NCBI GenBank assembly: GCA_964460855.1
Contig: CAYWQH010000004.1
Span: forward strand, 39,015 to 103,014
Origin: an uncultured Candidatus Saccharibacteria bacterium
Lineage (GTDB): Bacteria > Patescibacteriota > Saccharimonadia > Saccharimonadales > UBA10212
Length of the DNA: 64,000 bases
Direction: 5' to 3'
The translations under genes and the position numbers were made by a program. Below, one piece after another: positions 40,212 to 49,325 of this stretch (position 1 is the first letter of the stretch; the number at the start of each line of letters is the position of its first letter). The notes under the pieces were generated by a model. That model worked only from the letters and a program-made list of their open reading frames with translations. It made no database searches and was not told the DNA's origin.

Positions 40212-42497
40212 TTATTTTGGCGCCCGGCGGCGAAAACTCTTTTTGGCCGGAGCTTCTGCTAATAATTTGGCGGCCGATTTGGCCGTTAGTTTTTTCGGGT
40301 CGGTTTCCTTAGGAATGCGGGCATTCTTTTTGCCATCTGTTACATAAGGTCCATACGGTCCGTTTAAAATTTTGATTTTGCCGAAATCGGCTATATTTTT
40401 ATTGGCTTCCTGCTCCATTTTTTTTGCGTAAAACTCGCGGGCCTCGTCTTCGGTGATAGTAAACGGGTCTTCGGGCTTTATGCTGACGAACTTCTTCTCG
40501 ACTTGGATGTAGGGGCCGAAACGACCGATATTGGCGTGGATTTCTTTGCCGTCGGTAGTTTTGCCGACCAGCCGCGGCAATTTAAACATACTTAATGCTT
40601 CTTCTAAAGTTACCGATTCTAACGTTGCTCCGGTAGGCATTGGGGCAAATTTAGGCTTTTCTTCGTCTTCGGCTTCACCGATCTGCAGCATCGGGCCGTA
40701 GCGGCCGTAGCGGGCTATTACCGGCCGGCCACTGGCCGGGTCTTTGCCCAGCTTGCGGGCCTGGGAGGTTTCGGCCCGGCTGACCGATTCGCTCTTGTGC
40801 AGCAGTGGTACGAAATCCTTATAAAAATCCTGGATCATTGCCTGCCACTCAAGCTTGCCGTCGGCGATATTATCCAGCTCGTCTTCGGCCTTGGCGGTAA
40901 AATCATAATCGACGATGCTGGCAAAATGCTTGGTCAAAAAATCGGTTACCATATCTGCCAGGTATGTCGGCACCAGCTTATTGCGGTCGGCGCCGTACCT
41001 CTCGGTGGCGTTGGATTTCTCGACTTTATCGCCCTTAAGTTCTAACCGGTTTACCTCGCGCTCCTGGCCCTCGAGGTCTTTTTTCTCGATATAACCCCGG
41101 TCTTGGATAACGCTAATGGTCGGGGCGTAGGTGCTGGGCCGGCCAATGCCCATCTCTTCGAGGTTTTTAACCAGGCTGGCTTCGCTATAACGGGCCGGCG
41201 GCCGGCTGAACACTTGCAGGCCTTCGGCCGTATCGAGCCTTAGCTTATCACCGGCTTTAACGGCCGGCAGAATCACGTCATCCTTGCCGCCGCCGTACAC
41301 TTTAAGATAACCGTCAAATATCAGTACTTCGCCTTTGGCCAGGAACTTCTCTTTCCGGTTACTGATATCTATGATTACTTCGGTGCGCTGGACTTTGGCC
41401 GAAGACATTTGGGATGCCAATGCCCGGCGCCAGACTAATTCGTATAAACGTTTTTGCTGGGCATCGGCGCCGGCGCTGAGCTTGTGGAAGTCAGTCGGCC
41501 GGATAGCTTCGTGGGCCTCTTGTGCGGATTCGCTTTTGGTGGCGTATTGTTTAGAGTTGCTATATTCAACTCCGTAATACTTATTAATATATTGTTTGGC
41601 GCTGTCGATGGCGATTTGCGAAATAATGGTGCTGTCGGTACGCATATAAGTAATATGCCCGTTTTCGTACAGGCGTTGGGCCAGCGTCATAGTCTGGCGG
41701 ACACTAAAACCTAGCTTGCGCGAGGCTTCCTGCTGCAAAGTTGAGGTGGTAAACGGCGGGCTGGCCGACTTGGTGCCGGGTTTTTGGTCGAGGCTGGCTA
41801 CTTTAAACTCGGCCTTAACGCAGTCGCTTAAAAACTTAGCGGCCGTATCTTTGCCGGCAAACCGTTCCGGCAGCTCGGCCCTAAGTTCTTGCTTGCCAGC
41901 TTTAAAAACAGCGGTAATTTTATATTTCGAATCGGATTGGTGGTCTTGGATTTCGCGCTCGCGTTCGACAATTAAGCGCACGGCAACACTCTGGACGCGG
42001 CCGGCGCTGAGGCCAGCCTGCACTTTTTTCCATAGTACGGGGCTCAGCTCATAACCAACCAAACGGTCCAGTACCCGGCGGGCCTGCTGGGCGTCTACCA
42101 GGTGTCGGTCTACTTTGCGCGGCGATTCGATGGCTTTTTCTATGGCCGGTTTGGTAATTTCGTGGAAAACAATGCGGTGGGTATCTTTAGGATCGAGATT
42201 TAGCGCTTCGGTTAAATGCCAGGCAATAGCTTCGCCTTCGCGGTCTTCATCGCTGGCCAGCCAAACGGTATGGCCTTTGGCCAGTTTCTTAAGCTCATTA
42301 ACCACCTTTTGCTTGTCGGGACTGATTTCGTAGGTCGGCTCAAAGTTATGGTCTAAATCAACGCCTAAACCTTTTTTTGGCAAGTCGCGGATGTGCCCGA
42401 AACTGCTTTTGACGATATAGTCGTTTCCAAGGTATTTTTCGATAGTTTTGGCTTTTGCCGGGCTTTCAACGATTACTAGGTTCTTTTTTCCTGCCAT
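40212..42497 (-). CDS. topA: DNA topoisomerase I
   Basis: Toprim domain LVIVESPAKAKTIEKYLG, catalytic Tyr context ITYMRTDS, 761 aa. Confidence 0.96.
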   Translation of the reverse strand: MAGKKNLVIVESPAKAKTIEKYLGNDYIVKSSFGHIRDLPKKGLGVDLDHNFEPTYEISPDKQKVVNELKKLAKGHTVWLASDEDREGEAIAWHLTEALNLDPKDTHRIVFHEITKPAIEKAIESPRKVDRHLVDAQQARRVLDRLVGYELSPVLWKKVQAGLSAGRVQSVAVRLIVEREREIQDHQSDSKYKITAVFKAGKQELRAELPERFAGKDTAAKFLSDCVKAEFKVASLDQKPGTKSASPPFTTSTLQQEASRKLGFSVRQTMTLAQRLYENGHITYMRTDSTIISQIAIDSAKQYINKYYGVEYSNSKQYATKSESAQEAHEAIRPTDFHKLSAGADAQQKRLYELVWRRALASQMSSAKVQRTEVIIDISNRKEKFLAKGEVLIFDGYLKVYGGGKDDVILPAVKAGDKLRLDTAEGLQVFSRPPARYSEASLVKNLEEMGIGRPSTYAPTISVIQDRGYIEKKDLEGQEREVNRLELKGDKVEKSNATERYGADRNKLVPTYLADMVTDFLTKHFASIVDYDFTAKAEDELDNIADGKLEWQAMIQDFYKDFVPLLHKSESVSRAETSQARKLGKDPASGRPVIARYGRYGPMLQIGEAEDEEKPKFAPMPTGATLESVTLEEALSMFKLPRLVGKTTDGKEIHANIGRFGPYIQVEKKFVSIKPEDPFTITEDEAREFYAKKMEQEANKNIADFGKIKILNGPYGPYVTDGKKNARIPKETDPKKLTAKSAAKLLAEAPAKKSFRRRAPK

Positions 42498-42542: not shown

Positions 42543-43412
42543 TTAAGCCGCCAGCGTCCAGTGGCCGGCCCCCAGTGGTTTTATATGGCCTTTTATTTCT
42601 AGCTGGGTCAGCAGCGAATAAAATTGGGCCGGCGGCAGCTGGCAGGCCTGGGCGATTAATTGCTGGTCGCTTATGCCCCCGCGCAAGGCCTCCACAACTG
42701 CTTGTTCGTCTTTGGATAAGCCGGCAATAGCCAGCAATTTGGTTTGCTTTGGCAGTGGCACGCCCAAGGCAAATAGCAGTTCTGTCTCGTTAGTAATCGG
42801 AGTAGCGCCGCTTTTTATAAGGTTATTGCAGCCTTCGCTGCCCGGCTGGTCGATGTTGCCTGGTACGGCTAAAACGCTTTTGCCCAGCTCCAGGGCGAAG
42901 CGGGCGGTGTGCAAGCTGCCACTTTTTAAGGCGGCTTCGGTTATTAAAACGCAGTCCGCCAGGGCGGCCATTATGCGGTTGCGGGCAATAAAAGAAGTTT
43001 TATATATTTCGCTGCCCTCGGGGTACTCGCTTACCAGGCTGCCGCCGCTTTGCAATATTTGCCGCGATAGCCCGTAATGGCTGGCCGGGTAAATATTATC
43101 CAAAGCTGCCGGCAAAACTGCTACGGTTTGGCCGCCGGCGTTGATACAGGCCTGGTGGGCGATTGAGTCTATGCCAAGCGCCAGCCCGCTGATAATTACC
43201 ACCCCGGCCCGGCTGGCTGCCGCCGCTAATTTTTCGGTTGCCGCCCGCCCGTAGCGGCTGGCTTTACGGCTGCCCACCACAGCCAATTTCGGCTTATCGG
43301 CCCACTCTTCGTAGCCGGCGCCCTCAATGTATATCTGGCGCGGCGGCTGAGGCAAATACGTCAGAGGTAACGGCAAGATATCCCCGGTAAGCTTAAGAGT
43401 ATTGACAATCAT
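42543..43412 (-). CDS. dprA: DNA-processing protein DprA
   Basis: Rossmann-like core GLALGIDSIAHQ and a C-terminal winged helix. The dprA-topA adjacency is classic. Confidence 0.9.
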   Translation of the reverse strand: MIVNTLKLTGDILPLPLTYLPQPPRQIYIEGAGYEEWADKPKLAVVGSRKASRYGRAATEKLAAAASRAGVVIISGLALGIDSIAHQACINAGGQTVAVLPAALDNIYPASHYGLSRQILQSGGSLVSEYPEGSEIYKTSFIARNRIMAALADCVLITEAALKSGSLHTARFALELGKSVLAVPGNIDQPGSEGCNNLIKSGATPITNETELLFALGVPLPKQTKLLAIAGLSKDEQAVVEALRGGISDQQLIAQACQLPPAQFYSLLTQLEIKGHIKPLGAGHWTLAA

Positions 43413-43431
43413 ACTATATTGTTACTTAGTA

Positions 43432-43460
43432 TTGACATAATGCCATGTTTTTGCTAAAAT
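43432..43460 (+). promoter_or_regulatory. Near-consensus sigma70-type promoter facing the gene-free region
   Basis: TTGACA (43432-43437), an exact 17-nt spacer, then TAAAAT (43455-43460). Confidence 0.6.
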
Positions 43461-43466
43461 GACAAT

Positions 43467-43822
43467 CCGTAAGCGTGATTATCGCGTTTTAGCACCTTAT
43501 ACCCCCAACTTTTCTAACTATTAGTTAGATTGTTTTAGAGCGAGCCACTGCAAGTTGTTACCCTCCACTTACTTTGGCGTCCGCTGGACTCGTCCGGCAA
43601 AGACGCTCTAAAACAAACTAACCCCTTTAACCACGCTCTTCCCCTCGTTTTATTTGAGTGTTAGGCAAGAGACGTCCAACCTTTGTGTGGGCCTGCAAGC
43701 ATTTTCTGCTAACAGGAAGGCCTTCAAGGTGGGTTGAAGGGTGTAATTTGGGCTTGAGCTTAAGTTCGAGCCCCAAAATGGCTTCCGGCGGTGCCCACCC
43801 CCTCCGGAAGCCTTTTTGGTTT
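43467..43822 (+). ncRNA. Candidate ~350-nt structured non-coding transcript (class unknown)
   Basis: Bounded by the promoter above and the terminator at 43780-43822. Contains a 12-bp stem (43531-43542/43604-43615) and hairpins at 43721-43740 and 43750-43773. No ORF has both an SD and a plausible sequence. Confidence 0.3.
43780..43822 (+). terminator. Intrinsic terminator
   Basis: GGCTTCCGG (43780-43788) pairs with CCGGAAGCC (43804-43812), followed by TTTTTGGTTT. Confidence 0.7.
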
Positions 43823-44048
43823 CATTAATAATATAAGCTAAGCAACTGGTGCCCACCCGCTCGTCATTTTCTGCTGAAAATGCTCGCAGGCCCGCCTCGG
43901 CGCCGTCGCGCCTGCGGCCTTGCGAGATACCCCCGGCATCTCTCACCCTCTGGTGGCTCTTTACATTTATGCACTATTAATTGGTTAATCGAACCACATC
44001 CCACATCACGCTACTCATGTTGCACTTAATTTATTACACGCTCCTAAA

Positions 44049-44077
44049 TTGCTTAATTATTTTTAAGCTGTTATAAA
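44049..44077 (+). promoter_or_regulatory. Promoter of mini-gene 1
   Basis: TTGCTT, 17 nt, TATAAA. Confidence 0.55.
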
Positions 44078-44130
44078 AGTGCGGTGTGGAAGCCTCCACG
44101 CAACCTTCACAACGCAACAGGAGCGGTGGC

Positions 44131-44373
44131 GTGATTAATTCGTTTACGTACTTTTTTGGACGTCTGCTCATCAACAAGTGGTTCCATGGCTGCTACTTGG
44201 CAGTCTGCTTCTGGATCGGCATCGCCTACCCCGGTGAGCTCAGCATGAAATTCATGCTGGAATCGTTCTTCGCCGGGGCCGCATTGCTGTTCGTCCTGGT
44301 CATCGTCGGCTACCGGCTGATGATCGCCAGCGAACGGTACACGCACAAGCGCTACGGGCCCGGGCTATGGTAG
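44131..44373 (+). CDS. Mini-gene 1: 80-aa predicted 2-TM peptide
   Basis: GTG 44131 lies 7 nt after AGGAG (44119-44123). The track start 44086 has no SD. Two hydrophobic helices and a basic tail (ERYTHKRYGPGLW). GC-rich third codon positions. The stop lies inside a GCCCGGGC/GCCCGGGC hairpin (44358-44390). Confidence 0.5.
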   Translation: MINSFTYFFGRLLINKWFHGCYLAVCFWIGIAYPGELSMKFMLESFFAGAALLFVLVIVGYRLMIASERYTHKRYGPGLW

Positions 44374-44425
44374 TAATACCACGCCCGGGCTTCGGCCCTC
44401 TCCTGTTGCGAAATTTATCCTGCTT

Positions 44426-44454
44426 TTGCTAATTACTTAATTTAATGTTATAAC
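44426..44454 (+). promoter_or_regulatory. Promoter of mini-gene 2
   Basis: TTGCTA, 17 nt, TATAAC. Confidence 0.55.
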
Positions 44455-44488
44455 TTTTGGGTCAACAGTTCGTTTTGCCGACGAGGTA

Positions 44489-44689
44489 ATGATGAGCGAT
44501 TCGGAAATGGGTAAGCGCGAGAGCGCAATCTGCTACATCTGCATTTGCGTTGCACTGCCCTTCGCACTGTTCGCGTGCGTAATGCGCAACTGGTCTCCCT
44601 ACGGGTTGATCGCGGCCGTATGCGTGCTGGTGGTGGCAGCAGTCATCGCGAAACCGCTGTGGCGGCCCACCCGCGAAGACACTAGCTAG
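44489..44689 (+). CDS. Mini-gene 2: 65-66-aa predicted 2-TM, Cys-rich peptide
   Basis: GAGG SD, then ATGATG (the start may be 44489 or 44492). Two hydrophobic helices. Followed by a perfect 13-bp hairpin at 44699-44730. Confidence 0.5.
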   Translation: MMSDSEMGKRESAICYICICVALPFALFACVMRNWSPYGLIAAVCVLVVAAVIAKPLWRPTREDTS

Positions 44690-44797
44690 AACTTGGTTGC
44701 GGTAGCGAGGGTTAGTTCCCTCGCTACCGCTCAGCCATCGGACTGTTGACACTTTTCAAAAGTAGCATCGGGTAAGGCAGTTTTTGAAAAGTAAGCA

Positions 44798-44826
44798 TTT
44801 ACAAAATAGTCAATTTATTGTAGAAT
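44798..44826 (+). promoter_or_regulatory. Promoter of mini-gene 3
   Basis: TTTACA, 17 nt, TAGAAT. Confidence 0.6.
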
Positions 44827-44861
44827 ATGCATTAAGTGTTGACCCGCATCTAAGGAGCAGA

Positions 44862-45080
44862 ATGCCCACCATCGTCTCAGTCGATACGATCGAGGCTATC
44901 CTGGCCCACAGACGCCGTCGCGGCCGCATCTACCGCTGGTGGTCCACAATCGGCTGGTACACCGCCGATGACAACCTGAGGAAGAAGCACCAGCGGCGAG
45001 TCGCAAGCCTGGAGGACGAGCGCCTACAGCTCGTTCTCGAGCACCGCCGCGCCGTCGACGAACGGTGTCAGCGCTATTAG
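44862..45080 (+). CDS. Mini-gene 3: 72-aa Arg-rich soluble peptide
   Basis: ATG 44862 lies 4 nt after AAGGAG (44852-44857). The track TTG 44784 would start upstream of the promoter. Sequence is HRRRRGRIYRWW followed by a helical Arg/Glu-rich C-terminus. The stop lies in the loop of an 11-bp hairpin (45065-45089). Confidence 0.5.
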   Translation: MPTIVSVDTIEAILAHRRRRGRIYRWWSTIGWYTADDNLRKKHQRRVASLEDERLQLVLEHRRAVDERCQRY

Positions 45081-45104
45081 CGCTGACACTGCCGCGAAAC
45101 ACTT

Positions 45105-45139
45105 GGGGCCCCGGAGAGATCCGGGGCCCCTTTTGCTTT
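45105..45139 (+). terminator. Intrinsic terminator shared with the 3' end of pth
   Basis: GGGGCCCCGG / CCGGGGCCCC form a perfect 10-bp stem followed by TTTTGCTTT. The pth stop codon (45138-45140, minus strand) lies in the T-tract. Confidence 0.75.
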
Positions 45140-45773
45140 ATAAAACAGACCTTGTGTCGTGGGGGAGTTCGCCCCCAAAGATGTATTCGGTTAGCATGGC
45201 GTTAATTTCGCCCAAAATCTTCCCCATTTCCCCCTGCTCCGCCTTGTTGAATTTATCTAATACAAACTTATCGGAATCAGTTTTGTCAGAGTGTTCATTA
45301 GATATGCCAACACGCAGTCGGCCGAAGTCCTCGCCCATATGCTCAATTAACGATTTTATGCCGTTATGGCCGGCGCTTTCGCCGCCTACCCTGGCCCGGA
45401 TCTGGCCAAACGGCAAAGCCAGCTCGTCGTGGACTACGACGGTCTCCGGGTTATAGACGCGATAATATCGCTGTAGCGCCCCAGCCGCCTGGCCGCTCAT
45501 ATTCATGAAAGTCAGCGGTTTGCATAAAATTACTTTTACCGGCCCCATCATCATGGAAGTTTCCAAACACTGGAGGTCCCTTTTTAAAACCCAGCCCGGA
45601 AAGTCATTTTTTTCGGCAAAACTGTCTAGCGCGGCAAACCCCAGGTTATGGCGGGTGCCGTCGTACTCCTCTCCTGGGTTGCCGAGGCCGATTATCAGGT
45701 ATGTTTTACCGCCGCCAACCGTATAGGCCGGCGCGCTGTTGCCTACTTCTACTCTTCGCTGCAATAATCCCAT
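45138..45773 (-). CDS. pth: Peptidyl-tRNA hydrolase
   Basis: YLIIGLGNPGEEYDGTRHNLGF and GHNGIKS. Confidence 0.93.
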   Translation of the reverse strand: MGLLQRRVEVGNSAPAYTVGGGKTYLIIGLGNPGEEYDGTRHNLGFAALDSFAEKNDFPGWVLKRDLQCLETSMMMGPVKVILCKPLTFMNMSGQAAGALQRYYRVYNPETVVVHDELALPFGQIRARVGGESAGHNGIKSLIEHMGEDFGRLRVGISNEHSDKTDSDKFVLDKFNKAEQGEMGKILGEINAMLTEYIFGGELPHDTRSVL

Positions 45774-45914
45774 TTGGCTTTAGTATTCCGCATTGTACTT
45801 TTTAGCGCAAGCCAACCCCGTTCGGTATGGTAATATTTAATTCCATGCGAAAACCGCGCGCCCGCGGGGCAACATGGTCGTTAACAAGCAGCGCGTCCGA
45901 TTTTAAGGAGAATA

Positions 45915-46103
45915 TTGCTTTCCAAAGAAGACGTCATTTTCCGCGTAATACTAGCGTTTATGACGATTACACTTTTCGTCGTAGGCGTTTACTACTACAA
46001 GTATATAGACCACTACCGGGGGCACCAGATACTTGGGTGCTCCGGAGCCCTGTTCGGGCTCTTAGTCGTGGTGGTTATCTGGGAAAAACCCAAGCGGCTC
46101 TGA
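45915..46103 (+). CDS. Mini-gene 4: 62-aa predicted 2-TM peptide
   Basis: AAGGAG (45905-45910), then TTG. TGGTAATAT extended -10 at 45828-45836. Two hydrophobic helices and a basic end (EKPKRL). Hairpin at 46107-46133. Confidence 0.45.
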   Translation: MLSKEDVIFRVILAFMTITLFVVGVYYYKYIDHYRGHQILGCSGALFGLLVVVVIWEKPKRL

Positions 46104-46184
46104 CAACTCCCCGGGGCCCCAGCCCCTGGGGAGCACCTTCCGCGCTGCTTAAGTCCTAATGATTGCAAATAACGTATAATTTTG

Positions 46185-46213
46185 TTGATAAAAGTTGCTA
46201 AATATTGTACTAT
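46185..46213 (+). promoter_or_regulatory. Promoter of mini-gene 5
   Basis: TTGATA, 17 nt, TACTAT. Confidence 0.55.
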
Positions 46214-46298
46214 ATGTTTTAGCTAAGTGAGCAACGTCTGTTGCCCATCACGCGAACTTTAGCAGTGCGCACACCAATCCGAGGCTTGGAGAATCAAA

Positions 46299-46592
46299 AT
46301 GCGAGAATTGGTACTAACGGCCATTACCGCGGTCTACGGAGTTGGCTGCGTCTGGGGCTACTTCTGGATCAAGGACTTTCTATGGAATGAACGGCACCCG
46401 ATGTACAGTAGCCGGCATTCATTCCCCGGCAGTTCTTACGAGCTGACGGACGGCACTTTCCTGGCGGTGTTCTACTGCCCGGCGTGGCCATTGCTGCTGA
46501 TCGGACTGCCGGTCTACGCCCGCACTAAGAGGCGTGGTGTACTATGGCAACTTACGCCGGCGCGTTTCCGAGACCAGGATCCTGACGCTTAA
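46299..46592 (+). CDS. Mini-gene 5: 97-aa predicted 2-TM peptide
   Basis: GGAG SD 7 nt before the ATG. Two hydrophobic helices separated by a polar loop, with a basic/acidic tail. Confidence 0.5.
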   Translation: MRELVLTAITAVYGVGCVWGYFWIKDFLWNERHPMYSSRHSFPGSSYELTDGTFLAVFYCPAWPLLLIGLPVYARTKRRGVLWQLTPARFRDQDPDA

Positions 46593-46619
46593 GGAGGGGC
46601 CGGGTTAGCCGGCCCCTCC
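46593..46619. terminator. Perfect 11-bp GC hairpin between convergent mini-gene 5 and der
   Basis: GGAGGGGCCGG-GTTAG-CCGGCCCCTCC. There is no U-tract on either side. Confidence 0.5.
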
Positions 46620-46642
46620 CAAGCGCGCTGCTACATTTATTA

Positions 46643-47959
46643 CTAATGTTTTTCGATGAACCAGAATTGGATTGGTGTGCCAACCATGTCCCACTTTTGC
46701 CTGAATTCCCGGTCCATGTAGCGCCGGTAGCTCCAGTGCAAATACTTGGTGTGGGCGCCGAAAATTTTAAATGCCGGAATCGGGTTGTCGTCTTCCTGCA
46801 CCATGTAATTTAGTTTCGGTGCCCTGCCCTTTAAACCGGCCGGCGGGTGGTCGTCGGTTACTTGTTTTAGCCACTGGTTAAGCTCCGGCGTTTTAAACCG
46901 CTGGTCGCGGCGCCGTTTTATGTCAGTTATAAGTTCGAACAGCTTGGTAACATTCTGGCCGGTTACGGCGCTGGTGAAAATTAAAGGAGCCCAGGGTACG
47001 AACTCAAAATTAGCGGTGATTTGCGGCGCTATTTCGTCCCTGGTGAAAGCATCTTTTTCGGCGCTGTCCCATTTGCTGACTACCAGCACCAGGCCTTTGC
47101 CGGCTTCTTTAACCAGCCCGGCTATTTTCTGGTCGAGCTGAACGCTTAATTCGTTTACGTCCATTAATAGCATGCAAATATCCGCCTGCTCTATAGCGGC
47201 TAAAGCCCGCAATACACTAAACTTTTCGACGCCGCGCTCGATTTTGCCGCTACGCCGGATGCCGGCGGTGTCCATAAGCTCAATCTCGCGGTCGCGGAAG
47301 CGAACGGTAATGCGGTTAACGTCGCGGGTGGTGCCGGCCCGGTCGGCCACTAGGGCCTGTTGTTTCTTGGCCAGCGAATTAAACAAACTGGACTTGCCCA
47401 CGTTCGGGCGGCCCAAAATTGCAACCCTGATGCGGTTGGGGTCTTCGTCGATTTTGGCTGGCGTTATGCTGACCGTTACCGACTTTAACAGCTCTGCCAG
47501 CCCTGTTTTTTGGGTGGTGCTGGTAAGAACTACCTGCTTGATGCCTAGTTTTTGGAAATCTTCCGGCTTGGCCTTTTTAGCTTTGTCCGATTTGTTGATA
47601 ACTAAAAAAACCGGCTTGCGGCTTTTGTGGGCCAGGGTTGCCACCCGGCGGTCTTCGTCGGTAAATGGCACGTCGGCTTCGGTTACGACCAGGATAATAT
47701 CGGCCGCATATGTTGCTTCCGTGATTTGCTCCTGGATAGATAGTTCGAAATCGTCTTCGGCGGCCTTCATGCCCGCCGTGTCGACCAGCCAAAAGTCTTT
47801 GCCGCCGTAGCTGGCTTTGGCGGTTATGCTGTCGCGGGTGGTGCCCGGCTCGCGGGCTACCACTGCCTCGCGGCGGCCCAAAACCGCATTGAACAAGCTG
47901 GACTTGCCCACGTTAGCCCGCCCGACAATCGCTACAATCGGAACTTTGGTATTACTCAT
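46643..47959 (-). CDS. der: Ribosome-associated GTPase Der/EngA
   Basis: Two G domains (GRANVGKSS and GRPNVGKSS) plus a C-terminal KH-like domain. Confidence 0.95.
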   Translation of the reverse strand: MSNTKVPIVAIVGRANVGKSSLFNAVLGRREAVVAREPGTTRDSITAKASYGGKDFWLVDTAGMKAAEDDFELSIQEQITEATYAADIILVVTEADVPFTDEDRRVATLAHKSRKPVFLVINKSDKAKKAKPEDFQKLGIKQVVLTSTTQKTGLAELLKSVTVSITPAKIDEDPNRIRVAILGRPNVGKSSLFNSLAKKQQALVADRAGTTRDVNRITVRFRDREIELMDTAGIRRSGKIERGVEKFSVLRALAAIEQADICMLLMDVNELSVQLDQKIAGLVKEAGKGLVLVVSKWDSAEKDAFTRDEIAPQITANFEFVPWAPLIFTSAVTGQNVTKLFELITDIKRRRDQRFKTPELNQWLKQVTDDHPPAGLKGRAPKLNYMVQEDDNPIPAFKIFGAHTKYLHWSYRRYMDREFRQKWDMVGTPIQFWFIEKH

Positions 47960-48033: not shown

Positions 48034-48660
48034 ATGTCAATGGTCGGACAATTTGGTAGGTGGCTTGGTGATTCTTATACCGGGATAAAAGCTCAATCTG
48101 GCGTATTCGATCAAATCTTGTTCGATATGGAGCGCGCTCATTTATCGCCGGACGATTTATTCACAAAATTGGGCAGCTTACCATTGGAACTTATAGTGGC
48201 TACTAACTTCGTACATGACGAAACTGATAAAAATTCACGTAAGCTTGTAAAAGAAAAGCAACAAGCTGAAAAAATAGTATCGGCGGTTTTAGAATTTACA
48301 GGTACTCAGGTAACGGCTATTGGCAGTGACGTGCACGAATTTAGCCACGACGGCTATACAACGCGACATTACCGTACTTCTGACAAATTAATCCATAATG
48401 CCGTAAAAGACGCCGGTATTCCTTATAGACAAACACATATTTCTGCCGGCGAGCATAAAGCAACACCGGACCATCAAGAAACCTATATTTCGGAGGTTTC
48501 GCATCATATAGCAGTCGTTGGTACCCTGTACGCTGATTCGTTATATATACCCGCCGGTTATAAAGAGTTGGTTGATGGCGCTGCCTTTCACTTTGATAAA
48601 ACTGCCGGCGACTGGCACAAAATAGCCGCAAATATCGACAACGTTAAACCCATATCCTGA
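48034..48660 (+). CDS. Hypothetical protein, AT-rich orphan
   Basis: 208-aa ORF with no recognised motif. TATAAA (48020-48025) lies 8 nt before the ATG and there is no SD. Confidence 0.5.
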   Translation: MSMVGQFGRWLGDSYTGIKAQSGVFDQILFDMERAHLSPDDLFTKLGSLPLELIVATNFVHDETDKNSRKLVKEKQQAEKIVSAVLEFTGTQVTAIGSDVHEFSHDGYTTRHYRTSDKLIHNAVKDAGIPYRQTHISAGEHKATPDHQETYISEVSHHIAVVGTLYADSLYIPAGYKELVDGAAFHFDKTAGDWHKIAANIDNVKPIS

Positions 48661-48662
48661 CT

Positions 48663-49325
48663 CTAAATAACTAGTTGCTTGGCATCGCCGGGGGCTAAAT
48701 CGCCCAAATGAAACGGGCCAAAAGTTATGCGGTGAAGTTTTGTAACTTTATAACCCAAACTTTCGAAAGTCCGGCGGATTTGGCGGTTGCGCCCCTCGGC
48801 CATTTTTACTTCGTATAACGTGTCGTCGGCCGACGGCAGCCGCACGACAGTTAAGCGGCTTATGCCATCGTCGAGGCGTACGCCCCTATTCAGCTGTTGT
48901 AAGTCCGGGGCGGCTAGCGCCCGGTCTACTTTTACCTGGTAAATCTTTAGCTTCTTAAATCTAGGATGGGTCAGTTGGTTGGCCAATTTGCCGTCGTTGG
49001 TTAAAAGTATTAATCCGGTAGAATCTTTGTCCAGCCGGCCCACCGGCTTAAGTTTGCGGTATTGTGCCGGCAGTAAGTCATAAATGGTCTGGCCGCCCTG
49101 CCCGGCGCGCGAGCTGATGTAACCTTCCGGTTTATTTAGCATAACTGTCAGCTGCTCACCGGTGCTCAGCAAGATGCCGTCCAGGCGTATTTTGTCCATA
49201 GAGCTGGTTTTAGCGCCCAGGGACGCGCTTTGGCCATTGACAGTTACCTGGCCGCTTTGGATAAGTTTATCGGCTTGCCGGCGCGATATACCGGTTGCCA
49301 AAGCAATATATTGGTTTAGGCGCAT
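48663..49325 (-). CDS. Pseudouridine synthase, RsuA/RluB family
   Basis: N-terminal S4 domain (RLNQYIALATGISRRQADKLI) and catalytic GRLDKDSTGLILLTNDG. Confidence 0.88.
   Translation of the reverse strand: MRLNQYIALATGISRRQADKLIQSGQVTVNGQSASLGAKTSSMDKIRLDGILLSTGEQLTVMLNKPEGYISSRAGQGGQTIYDLLPAQYRKLKPVGRLDKDSTGLILLTNDGKLANQLTHPRFKKLKIYQVKVDRALAAPDLQQLNRGVRLDDGISRLTVVRLPSADDTLYEVKMAEGRNRQIRRTFESLGYKVTKLHRITFGPFHLGDLAPGDAKQLVI

Follow-up and report, generated by a model that had tools for sequence, protein, structure and literature searches.

The window, which is the whole 64-kb stretch of DNA that was analysed, is part of a Saccharibacteria (TM7) chromosome. Within 2.6 kb of it, five short plus-strand open reading frames (ORFs), here called the mini-genes m1 to m5, are located among minus-strand core genes. 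They occupy two intergenic slots, one on each side of pth, the gene for peptidyl-tRNA hydrolase: m1-m3 lie in slot A and m4-m5 in slot B. An earlier note, made from the sequence alone, had described them as an array of individually insulated mini-genes and as a candidate small-protein system, and had called their placement around pth at least curious.

Mini-genes, promoter-like sites and hairpins

The five ORFs were confirmed, and the gene callers used for the public assemblies predict these same products, of 80, 65, 72, 62 and 97 amino acids (aa). For m2, for which the earlier note had given 66 aa, the second ATG at 44492 and a length of 65 aa are favoured because of the spacing to the Shine-Dalgarno (SD) sequence. 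The mini-genes are:

44131-44373, plus strand: m1, 80 aa, GTG start, AGGAG SD sequence 7 nucleotides (nt) upstream; two predicted transmembrane (TM) segments and a basic tail
44492-44689 (alternative ATG at 44489), plus strand: m2, 65 aa (66 aa from 44489); two predicted TM segments
44862-45080, plus strand: m3, 72 aa, basic (16 K+R), non-membrane; predicted single long helix
45915-46103, plus strand: m4, 62 aa, TTG start, AAGGAG SD sequence; two predicted TM segments, with GCSGALFG in the second (TM2)
46299-46592, plus strand: m5, 97 aa; two predicted TM segments, a 28-aa loop and a basic/acidic tail

In all five mini-genes an SD sequence could be identified 4-7 nt ahead of the preferred start. 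Hydropathy analysis showed two hydrophobic segments with charged flanks in m1, m4 and m5, and no hydrophobic segment in m3. In m2 a single long hydrophobic run was observed (residues 10-58), which is interrupted by RNWSP and is read as two helices. No mutual sequence similarity among m1-m5 and no paralogues within the window could be detected. These architectures agree with those described in the earlier note, namely four products with two TM segments and one product with a basic helix. Single-sequence AlphaFold2 predicted one long helix for m3 and, with low confidence, helices at residues 2-30, 51-59 and 62-82 for m5; neither model was judged to merit a search by fold.

The following promoter-like sites were assigned to the five units:

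44049-44077, plus strand: P1, TTGCTT, 17-nt spacer, TATAAA, with a TGn extended -10 (TGTTATAA)
44426-44454, plus strand: P2, TTGCTA, 17-nt spacer, TATAAC, with a TGn extended -10 (TGTTATAA)
44798-44826, plus strand: P3, TTTACA, 17-nt spacer, TAGAAT, matching 10/12 consensus positions
45828-45836, plus strand: P4, extended -10 only (TGGTAATAT), without a -35
46185-46213, plus strand: P5, TTGATA, 17-nt spacer, TACTAT

The hexamers are located where the earlier note had placed them and their quality is moderate. When a consensus scan was performed with a threshold of 9 of 12 consensus positions, only P3 and P5 passed; P1 and P2 fail because their -10 lacks the conserved final T. Between 43000 and 47500 the scan returned 9 promoter-like sites, compared with 3.8 ± 2.1 expected from shuffled sequences. 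A perfect TATAAT is also present at 46175, near P5.

Stable GC hairpins at the ORF ends, also described by the earlier note, were recovered with folding energies of -27 to -33 kcal/mol, and of -55 kcal/mol for a tandem pair:

44358-44390, plus strand: m1 hairpin, -29.4 kcal/mol, z -2.6, with the m1 stop codon in its loop and without T-tail
44699-44730, plus strand: m2 hairpin, perfect 13-bp stem, -33.3 kcal/mol, z -6.6
45065-45089 and 45105-45130, no strand: tandem hairpins after m3, -54.9 kcal/mol, z -8.9, the second with a T-tail
46107-46133, plus strand: m4 hairpin, -26.7 kcal/mol, z -2.4
46593-46619, no strand: m5 hairpin, perfect 11-bp stem, -33.5 kcal/mol, z -4.1

Each mini-gene stop codon is found inside its own hairpin or no more than 10 nt ahead of it. 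The 2.6-kb mini-gene stretch, which represents 4% of the length of the window, contains four of its nine perfect GC-rich hairpins (at least 8 bp). A T-tail is present only on the hairpin at 45105-45130, which sits 8 nt past the pth stop codon, and the tandem hairpins, placed between the convergent m3 and pth, probably terminate both. The m5 hairpin sits 24 nt past the stop codon of der, a minus-strand gene. The hairpins after m3 and m4 (45104-45118 and 46107-46121) have 14 of 15 nt of a core in common, in inverted orientation (TGGGGCCCCGGAGAG / CTCCCCGGGGCCCCA), and these inverted cores bracket pth and m4. The common core could be a chance match between GC-rich palindromes or a trace of a common origin.

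Coding signals, homologue searches and composition

In all five annotated frames the GC content at the third codon position (GC3, 0.64-0.82) was higher than that at the first (GC1) and second (GC2) positions, which was not the case in antisense or alternative frames. A codon model was trained on 40 host genes and scored per codon. The annotated frame was the top of six in 5/5 mini-genes, with scores of 0.04-0.37, compared with 0.40 ± 0.16 for host genes and -0.12 ± 0.17 for wrong frames. ORFs of this length were obtained by chance in 2-11% of shuffles per promoter-to-hairpin unit, which gives a product of about 5e-7. In RNA folding, m2 and m5 behaved like shuffled sequences (z -0.4 and -0.7) and the values for m3 and m4 were moderate (z -2.4 and -3.1); no Rfam family matched the mini-gene region. 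From these intrinsic signals, m1-m5 are probably genuine, separately transcribed small-protein genes.

Searches with m1, m3 and m4 identified no homologue among 5.8 billion protein clusters, and with m5 no real homologue was identified among 1.84 billion representatives. The m5 match P0006 was rejected as an artefact, since it is a translated tandem (satellite) repeat, with 29 chance matches. In an exact-cluster look-up all five mini-genes were singletons. IMG/VR, searched with all five, gave nothing significant, a DNA search of the INPHARED phages (50,697 phage records) gave no similarity, and the PLSDB plasmids, searched with m2, gave no match. The statement of the earlier note that no family could be recognised agrees with the Pfam, PHROGs, PADLOC and NCBIfam searches, which returned nothing significant for m1-m5; against the PADLOC defence-protein models there were no matches at E ≤ 1. 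Among the holin families the best match was that of m2 to Holin-X (PF07332), which is not significant (E 0.13). A marginal PHROG match was observed for m3 (phrog_22701, E 0.003). Nothing relevant was found in the literature.

TM2 of m4 (46023-46079, residues 39-57) contains the sequence GCSGALFG, which is similar to the catalytic motif GxSGxxFG of rhomboid proteases. In Pfam, the Rhomboid match of m4 is sub-threshold (E 0.002, 18.8 bits versus a cut-off of 22.6), and over a stretch of 24 residues m4 shares 50% identity with a rhomboid found in two viral contigs. A rhomboid protease has six TM helices, of which TM4 carries the GxSG serine and TM6 a histidine, whereas m4 has 62 aa, two TM segments and the motif only. 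The idea that m4 is a rhomboid-protease fragment was rejected, because the motif alone matches, the flanking DNA has no extended similarity and the PDB gave no match; it is kept as a weak lead.

The composition of the mini-genes was compared with that of the host. GC3 is 0.82 in m1, 0.76 in m2, 0.81 in m3, 0.64 in m4 and 0.67 in m5, and the host mean is 0.59 ± 0.03 with a maximum of 0.65 among about 50 host genes. Despite the shortness of the genes, m1-m3 are 3-4 sampling standard deviations over the host mean; m4 and m5 are near the host and differ marginally. Because of this GC3 excess, a foreign, GC-richer source is likely for m1-m3. The split in composition between m1-m3 and m4-m5 suggests that the two slots are differently derived, which argues against a single acquired system.

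The variable slots and the neighbouring RNA gene

The genes and slots surrounding the mini-genes are:

40212-42497, minus strand: topA, core gene near the mini-genes
42543-43412, minus strand: dprA, core gene near the mini-genes
about 43467-43825 (promoter 43432-43460), plus strand: unannotated conserved structured RNA gene, divergent from dprA, at the left edge of slot A
43837-45137, no strand: variable slot A, from the 3' end of the RNA gene to the pth stop codon; contains m1-m3
45138-45773, minus strand: pth (PF01195, E 2e-51), core gene between slots A and B
45774-46642, no strand: variable slot B, from der to pth; contains m4-m5
46643-47959, minus strand: der/engA, core gene bounding slot B
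48663-49325, minus strand: rluB-like gene, core gene of the cluster

Relatives were gathered with the Der protein, using one genome per species, which resulted in 17 loci, 16 of them on Saccharibacteria-type contigs. Der identity in these 16 relatives is 51-71%, and the order rluB-der-pth-dprA-topA is kept in them wherever the locus reaches that far. A tblastn search with m1-m5 in the syntenic relatives (L005-L020) detected none of the five, and at the DNA level no similarity to relatives was found to the right of 43837 or in the pth-der interval. Slot B measures 16-2713 bp in the relatives and 16-42 bp in three of them (L005, L008 and L009). The length of slot A is 23 nt in L007 and 53 nt in L005 and reaches 1343 nt in L013; it is 23-116 nt in the most compact relatives and 1334 nt here. 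The ORFs in the slots of the relatives are related neither to each other nor to m1-m5, and these slots contain no GC hairpins, few promoter-like sites and no clear promoters. Since the slots of the relatives are without insulated units, the insulated design appears to be specific to this genome and not clade-wide. Most simply, the compact arrangement is read as ancestral and the cassettes as insertions specific to this lineage.

The comparison with relatives that the earlier note had in mind could be made for presence and absence, with none of the five mini-genes in 16 relatives. For the ratio of nonsynonymous to synonymous substitution rates (dN/dS) it yielded same-strain copies only: the four other assemblies with the locus are of the same strain, with zero coding differences and one intergenic single-nucleotide polymorphism, and as they are essentially identical, dN/dS is impossible. 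A metagenome scan with Pth gave no relative closer than 61% identity.

Both slots are hypervariable and insertion-tolerant, the association with pth is positional only, and no functional tie of the mini-genes to pth was found. A meaning of their placement around pth is not supported, as what is seen there is two hypervariable slots in a conserved gene order. The rluB-der slot also varies, from 186 to about 2560 bp among the relatives, so that variable slots divide several core genes of the cluster. Here it holds a gene on the opposite strand (48034-48660, plus strand) for 208 aa without family match, whose GC3 of 0.38 is far under the host value of 0.59.

The RNA gene at the left edge of slot A has an invariant, near-consensus promoter (AGTATTGACA, 17 nt, TGCTAAAAT) and several invariant sequence blocks. 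Its predicted long-range helices include one of 19 bp (GUUAGAUUGUUUUAGAGCG / CGCUCUAAAACAAACUAAC), and compensatory double changes were found in 27 of the 73 predicted pairs (six species). The 3' hairpin has the invariant top GCGGUGCCCACCCCCUC, and no Rfam, tRNA or tmRNA (transfer-messenger RNA) match was obtained for the gene. In the block 43432-43465, promoter-like sites of opposite strands overlap fully, with TTGACA-17-TAAAAT on the plus strand (RNA gene) and TTGTCA-17-CATTAT on the minus strand (dprA); this block is conserved in the relatives.

The 17-nt top of this hairpin (GCGGTGCCCACCCCCTC, 43788-43804) is present as an exact copy in 53 IMG/VR phage contigs (viral loci L036-L088), whereas the complete RNA is present in L080 only. 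In 44 of 50 distinct phage contexts the 17-mer is directly flanked by a self-complementary stem of at least 5 bp, with a mean of 8.1 bp and 48 different stems. At random positions 0.8% have a stem of at least 5 bp and the mean is 0.6 bp. The phage contexts are diverse, for example between tRNA genes or upstream of structural genes, and the 17-mer adjoins terminase, portal, capsid and lysin genes. It has no local complementary partner and no Rfam family. The 17-mer hairpin looks like a free-standing module recognised in trans, and it is unrelated to the five mini-gene hairpins. Integration into slot A, at the 3' terminus of the RNA gene, was also considered; this was rejected because in phages the 17-mer is flanked by unrelated self-complementary stems and there is no integrase or recombinase among its 93 neighbouring proteins. 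Just after the RNA gene a degenerate, stemless second copy of the loop motif (GGTGCCCACCCGCTC) is located at 43848-43862, followed at 43873-43893 by a 21-nt inverted copy, 90% complementary, of the RNA segment 43689-43709. These partial copies may be the scar of a rearrangement at the boundary of the insertion, or else the RNA may be extended at its 3' end in this species.

Interpretation and comparison with known systems

With moderate confidence, m1-m5 are interpreted as independent, horizontally acquired orphan cassettes that resemble phage morons and were inserted into tolerant slots of a core-gene cluster. Each unit would be autonomous, with a sigma-70-type promoter, an SD sequence and a short ORF followed by a GC hairpin of very high stability. 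The cassettes would have been gained by horizontal transfer into the two intergenic slots of rluB-der-pth-dprA-topA; Saccharibacteria are naturally competent. As the hairpins are perfect palindromes, they should form in minus-strand transcripts too. They may stop transcription both ways and insulate the plus-strand mini-genes from minus-strand der, pth and dprA transcripts, and they would then also break the co-transcription of der and pth that is implied by the gap of 16-42 bp in relatives. The products of m1, m2, m4 and m5 are predicted to be helical hairpins inserted in the cytoplasmic membrane, with the N- and C-termini both on the cytoplasmic side, a topology proposed because these termini are basic, and m3 would be a cytoplasmic basic helical protein that possibly binds nucleic acid. 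By analogy, the preferred guess for their role is a strain-specific accessory function at the membrane, for example in exclusion, in immunity or in modulating envelope proteins, and the products would probably act individually and not as one machine.

Several observations weigh against this interpretation. P1, P2 and P4 are sub-consensus, and four of the five final hairpins have no T-tail, so that termination is assumed. For m2 (0.08) and m5 (0.04) the codon scores are intermediate between the host-coding and wrong-frame distributions, the antisense frame of m1 scores 0.18 versus 0.20 for the annotated frame, and the m1 transcript is unusually structured (z -4.7). As homologues are absent, purifying selection is not demonstrable, and for m2 the absence was observed in narrower searches, the two largest protein collections not having been searched with it. 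No donor sequence was found, and the case for horizontal origin is one of composition alone.

The weak codon scores of m2 and m5 and the strongly structured m1 RNA also fit an explanation in which the units do not code for proteins and are instead non-coding RNAs, either structured or antisense, or foreign, inert DNA whose GC-rich sequence has frames that are open by chance. The complete absence of homologues from the searches, antisense ORFs of 79 and 96 aa opposite m1 and m2, and single ORF lengths with p of only 0.02-0.11 point in the same direction. This explanation is nevertheless considered unlikely, since the annotated frame is the best in all five with strong GC3 periodicity, SD sequences stand 4-7 nt before each start and stops 0-10 nt from hairpins or inside them, four of five products have a coherent TM-loop-TM arrangement with charged flanks, and the m2 and m5 RNAs fold like shuffles and match nothing in Rfam. 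That the units are surviving cargo of a decayed prophage or mobile element, such as class II-type holins, superinfection-exclusion proteins or morons, is unlikely. Promoter-gene-terminator units of atypical composition are the defining look of morons, the two-TM proteins have charged C-terminal tails like class II holins, and the marginal match of m3 is to a phage family; however, there is no similarity to the phage records or IMG/VR and no significant PHROG or holin-family match, no integrase, endolysin, att repeats or other phage gene lies in or beside the slots, and the 17-mer common to the RNA gene and phages does not stand beside integrases there.

Type I toxin-antitoxin-like modules, in which membrane-depolarising toxins are restrained by an antisense or overlapping small RNA, would account for small membrane products with their own promoters and strong hairpins. 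The 5' leaders of m1, m4 and m5 have about 47-79 nt, the m1 and m4 transcripts are structured, and in a relaxed scan weak minus-strand TACAAT boxes were found at 44822 and 46209, antisense towards m2 and m4. Type I toxins are typically shorter than about 60 aa and have a single TM helix, whereas m1-m5 have 62-97 aa and the membrane products two TM helices. At the scan threshold (9/12) no minus-strand promoter was detected within the units, no Rfam antitoxin or small-RNA family matched, paralogous copies are absent and m3 is not hydrophobic; such modules are therefore judged very unlikely. Highly improbable is one coordinated small-protein system, for example a membrane complex with m3 as nucleic-acid-binding regulator, tied to pth. 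The five units do lie on the same strand within 2.6 kb and have a like design, the m3 and m4 hairpins have their 14/15-nt core in common, and P1 and P2 have the same TGTTATAA -10. Separate promoters and terminators, however, do not fit an operon, the difference in composition between m1-m3 and m4-m5 suggests that the two groups arose separately, the pth flanks in relatives are variable and filled with unrelated material, and no PADLOC defence-system model matched. The array or small-protein system of the earlier note was thus not supported, as the products are unrelated and have no homologues from which co-occurrence could be seen.

If the mini-genes, interpreted as independent acquired cassettes, are expressed, they would add to the large pool of uncharacterised small membrane proteins in the Candidate Phyla Radiation (CPR)/Patescibacteria, and compact episymbiont genomes would take up ready-to-express foreign mini-genes between essential genes. 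Such uptake, if true, bears on adaptation to hosts and phages. If the hairpins also act on the opposite strand, the insertion would have rewired transcription of the essential der-pth pair. It is a doubtful, more speculative idea that in an ultra-small episymbiont the cassettes are what morons are in phages. Mini-genes ready for expression, each with a hairpin as bidirectional insulator, would have been captured from foreign DNA into permissive slots of the core genome, and they would be kept because the small membrane proteins and the Arg-rich m3 serve in a phage arms race or in the interaction with the host bacterium. The value of the finding is limited in that these are the orphan genes of one strain and their function is not readable from the sequence.

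Among known systems, morons, as defined for lambdoid phages, are independent promoter-gene-terminator insertions. As read from the sequence, each of m1-m5 is likewise a single short gene that has a promoter and a stem-loop terminator of its own and lies between otherwise adjacent genes, and an atypical composition is found in m1-m3 and marginally in m4 and m5. Unlike morons, the mini-genes are located in a bacterial core-gene cluster with conserved synteny, without phage genes or phage similarity nearby. With type I toxins (Hok, TisB, Fst, Ibs/Ldr) they have in common that small hydrophobic membrane proteins are encoded in stand-alone units, but the mini-gene products are longer and have two TM segments, there are no repeat copies, m3 is soluble and no antisense RNA gene was detected. 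The products of m1, m2, m4 and m5 resemble class II holins and pinholins in their length of about 60-100 aa, two TM segments, charged C-terminal tail and probably cytoplasmic ends; unlike for these, no endolysin or lysis cassette, muramidase, amidase or phage gene is present in 43400-46650, and no holin family matched.

Integron cassette arrays are also series of small, unrelated genes, many of them orphans, with a hairpin-forming element after each gene. Integron cassettes, however, are promoterless and have attC sites and an adjacent integrase, whereas the mini-genes have promoter-like sites, short perfect GC stems without a common core and no integrase. Small membrane-protein regulators such as AcrZ, MgtS and KdpF are very small inner-membrane proteins that bind larger membrane proteins, and by analogy m1, m2, m4 and m5 could plausibly act in this way. 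These regulators are lineage-conserved and usually have one TM segment, whereas m1, m2, m4 and m5 are strain-specific and have two. Taken together, the mini-genes are new orphan examples of a familiar kind, that of strain-specific small accessory genes in variable slots.

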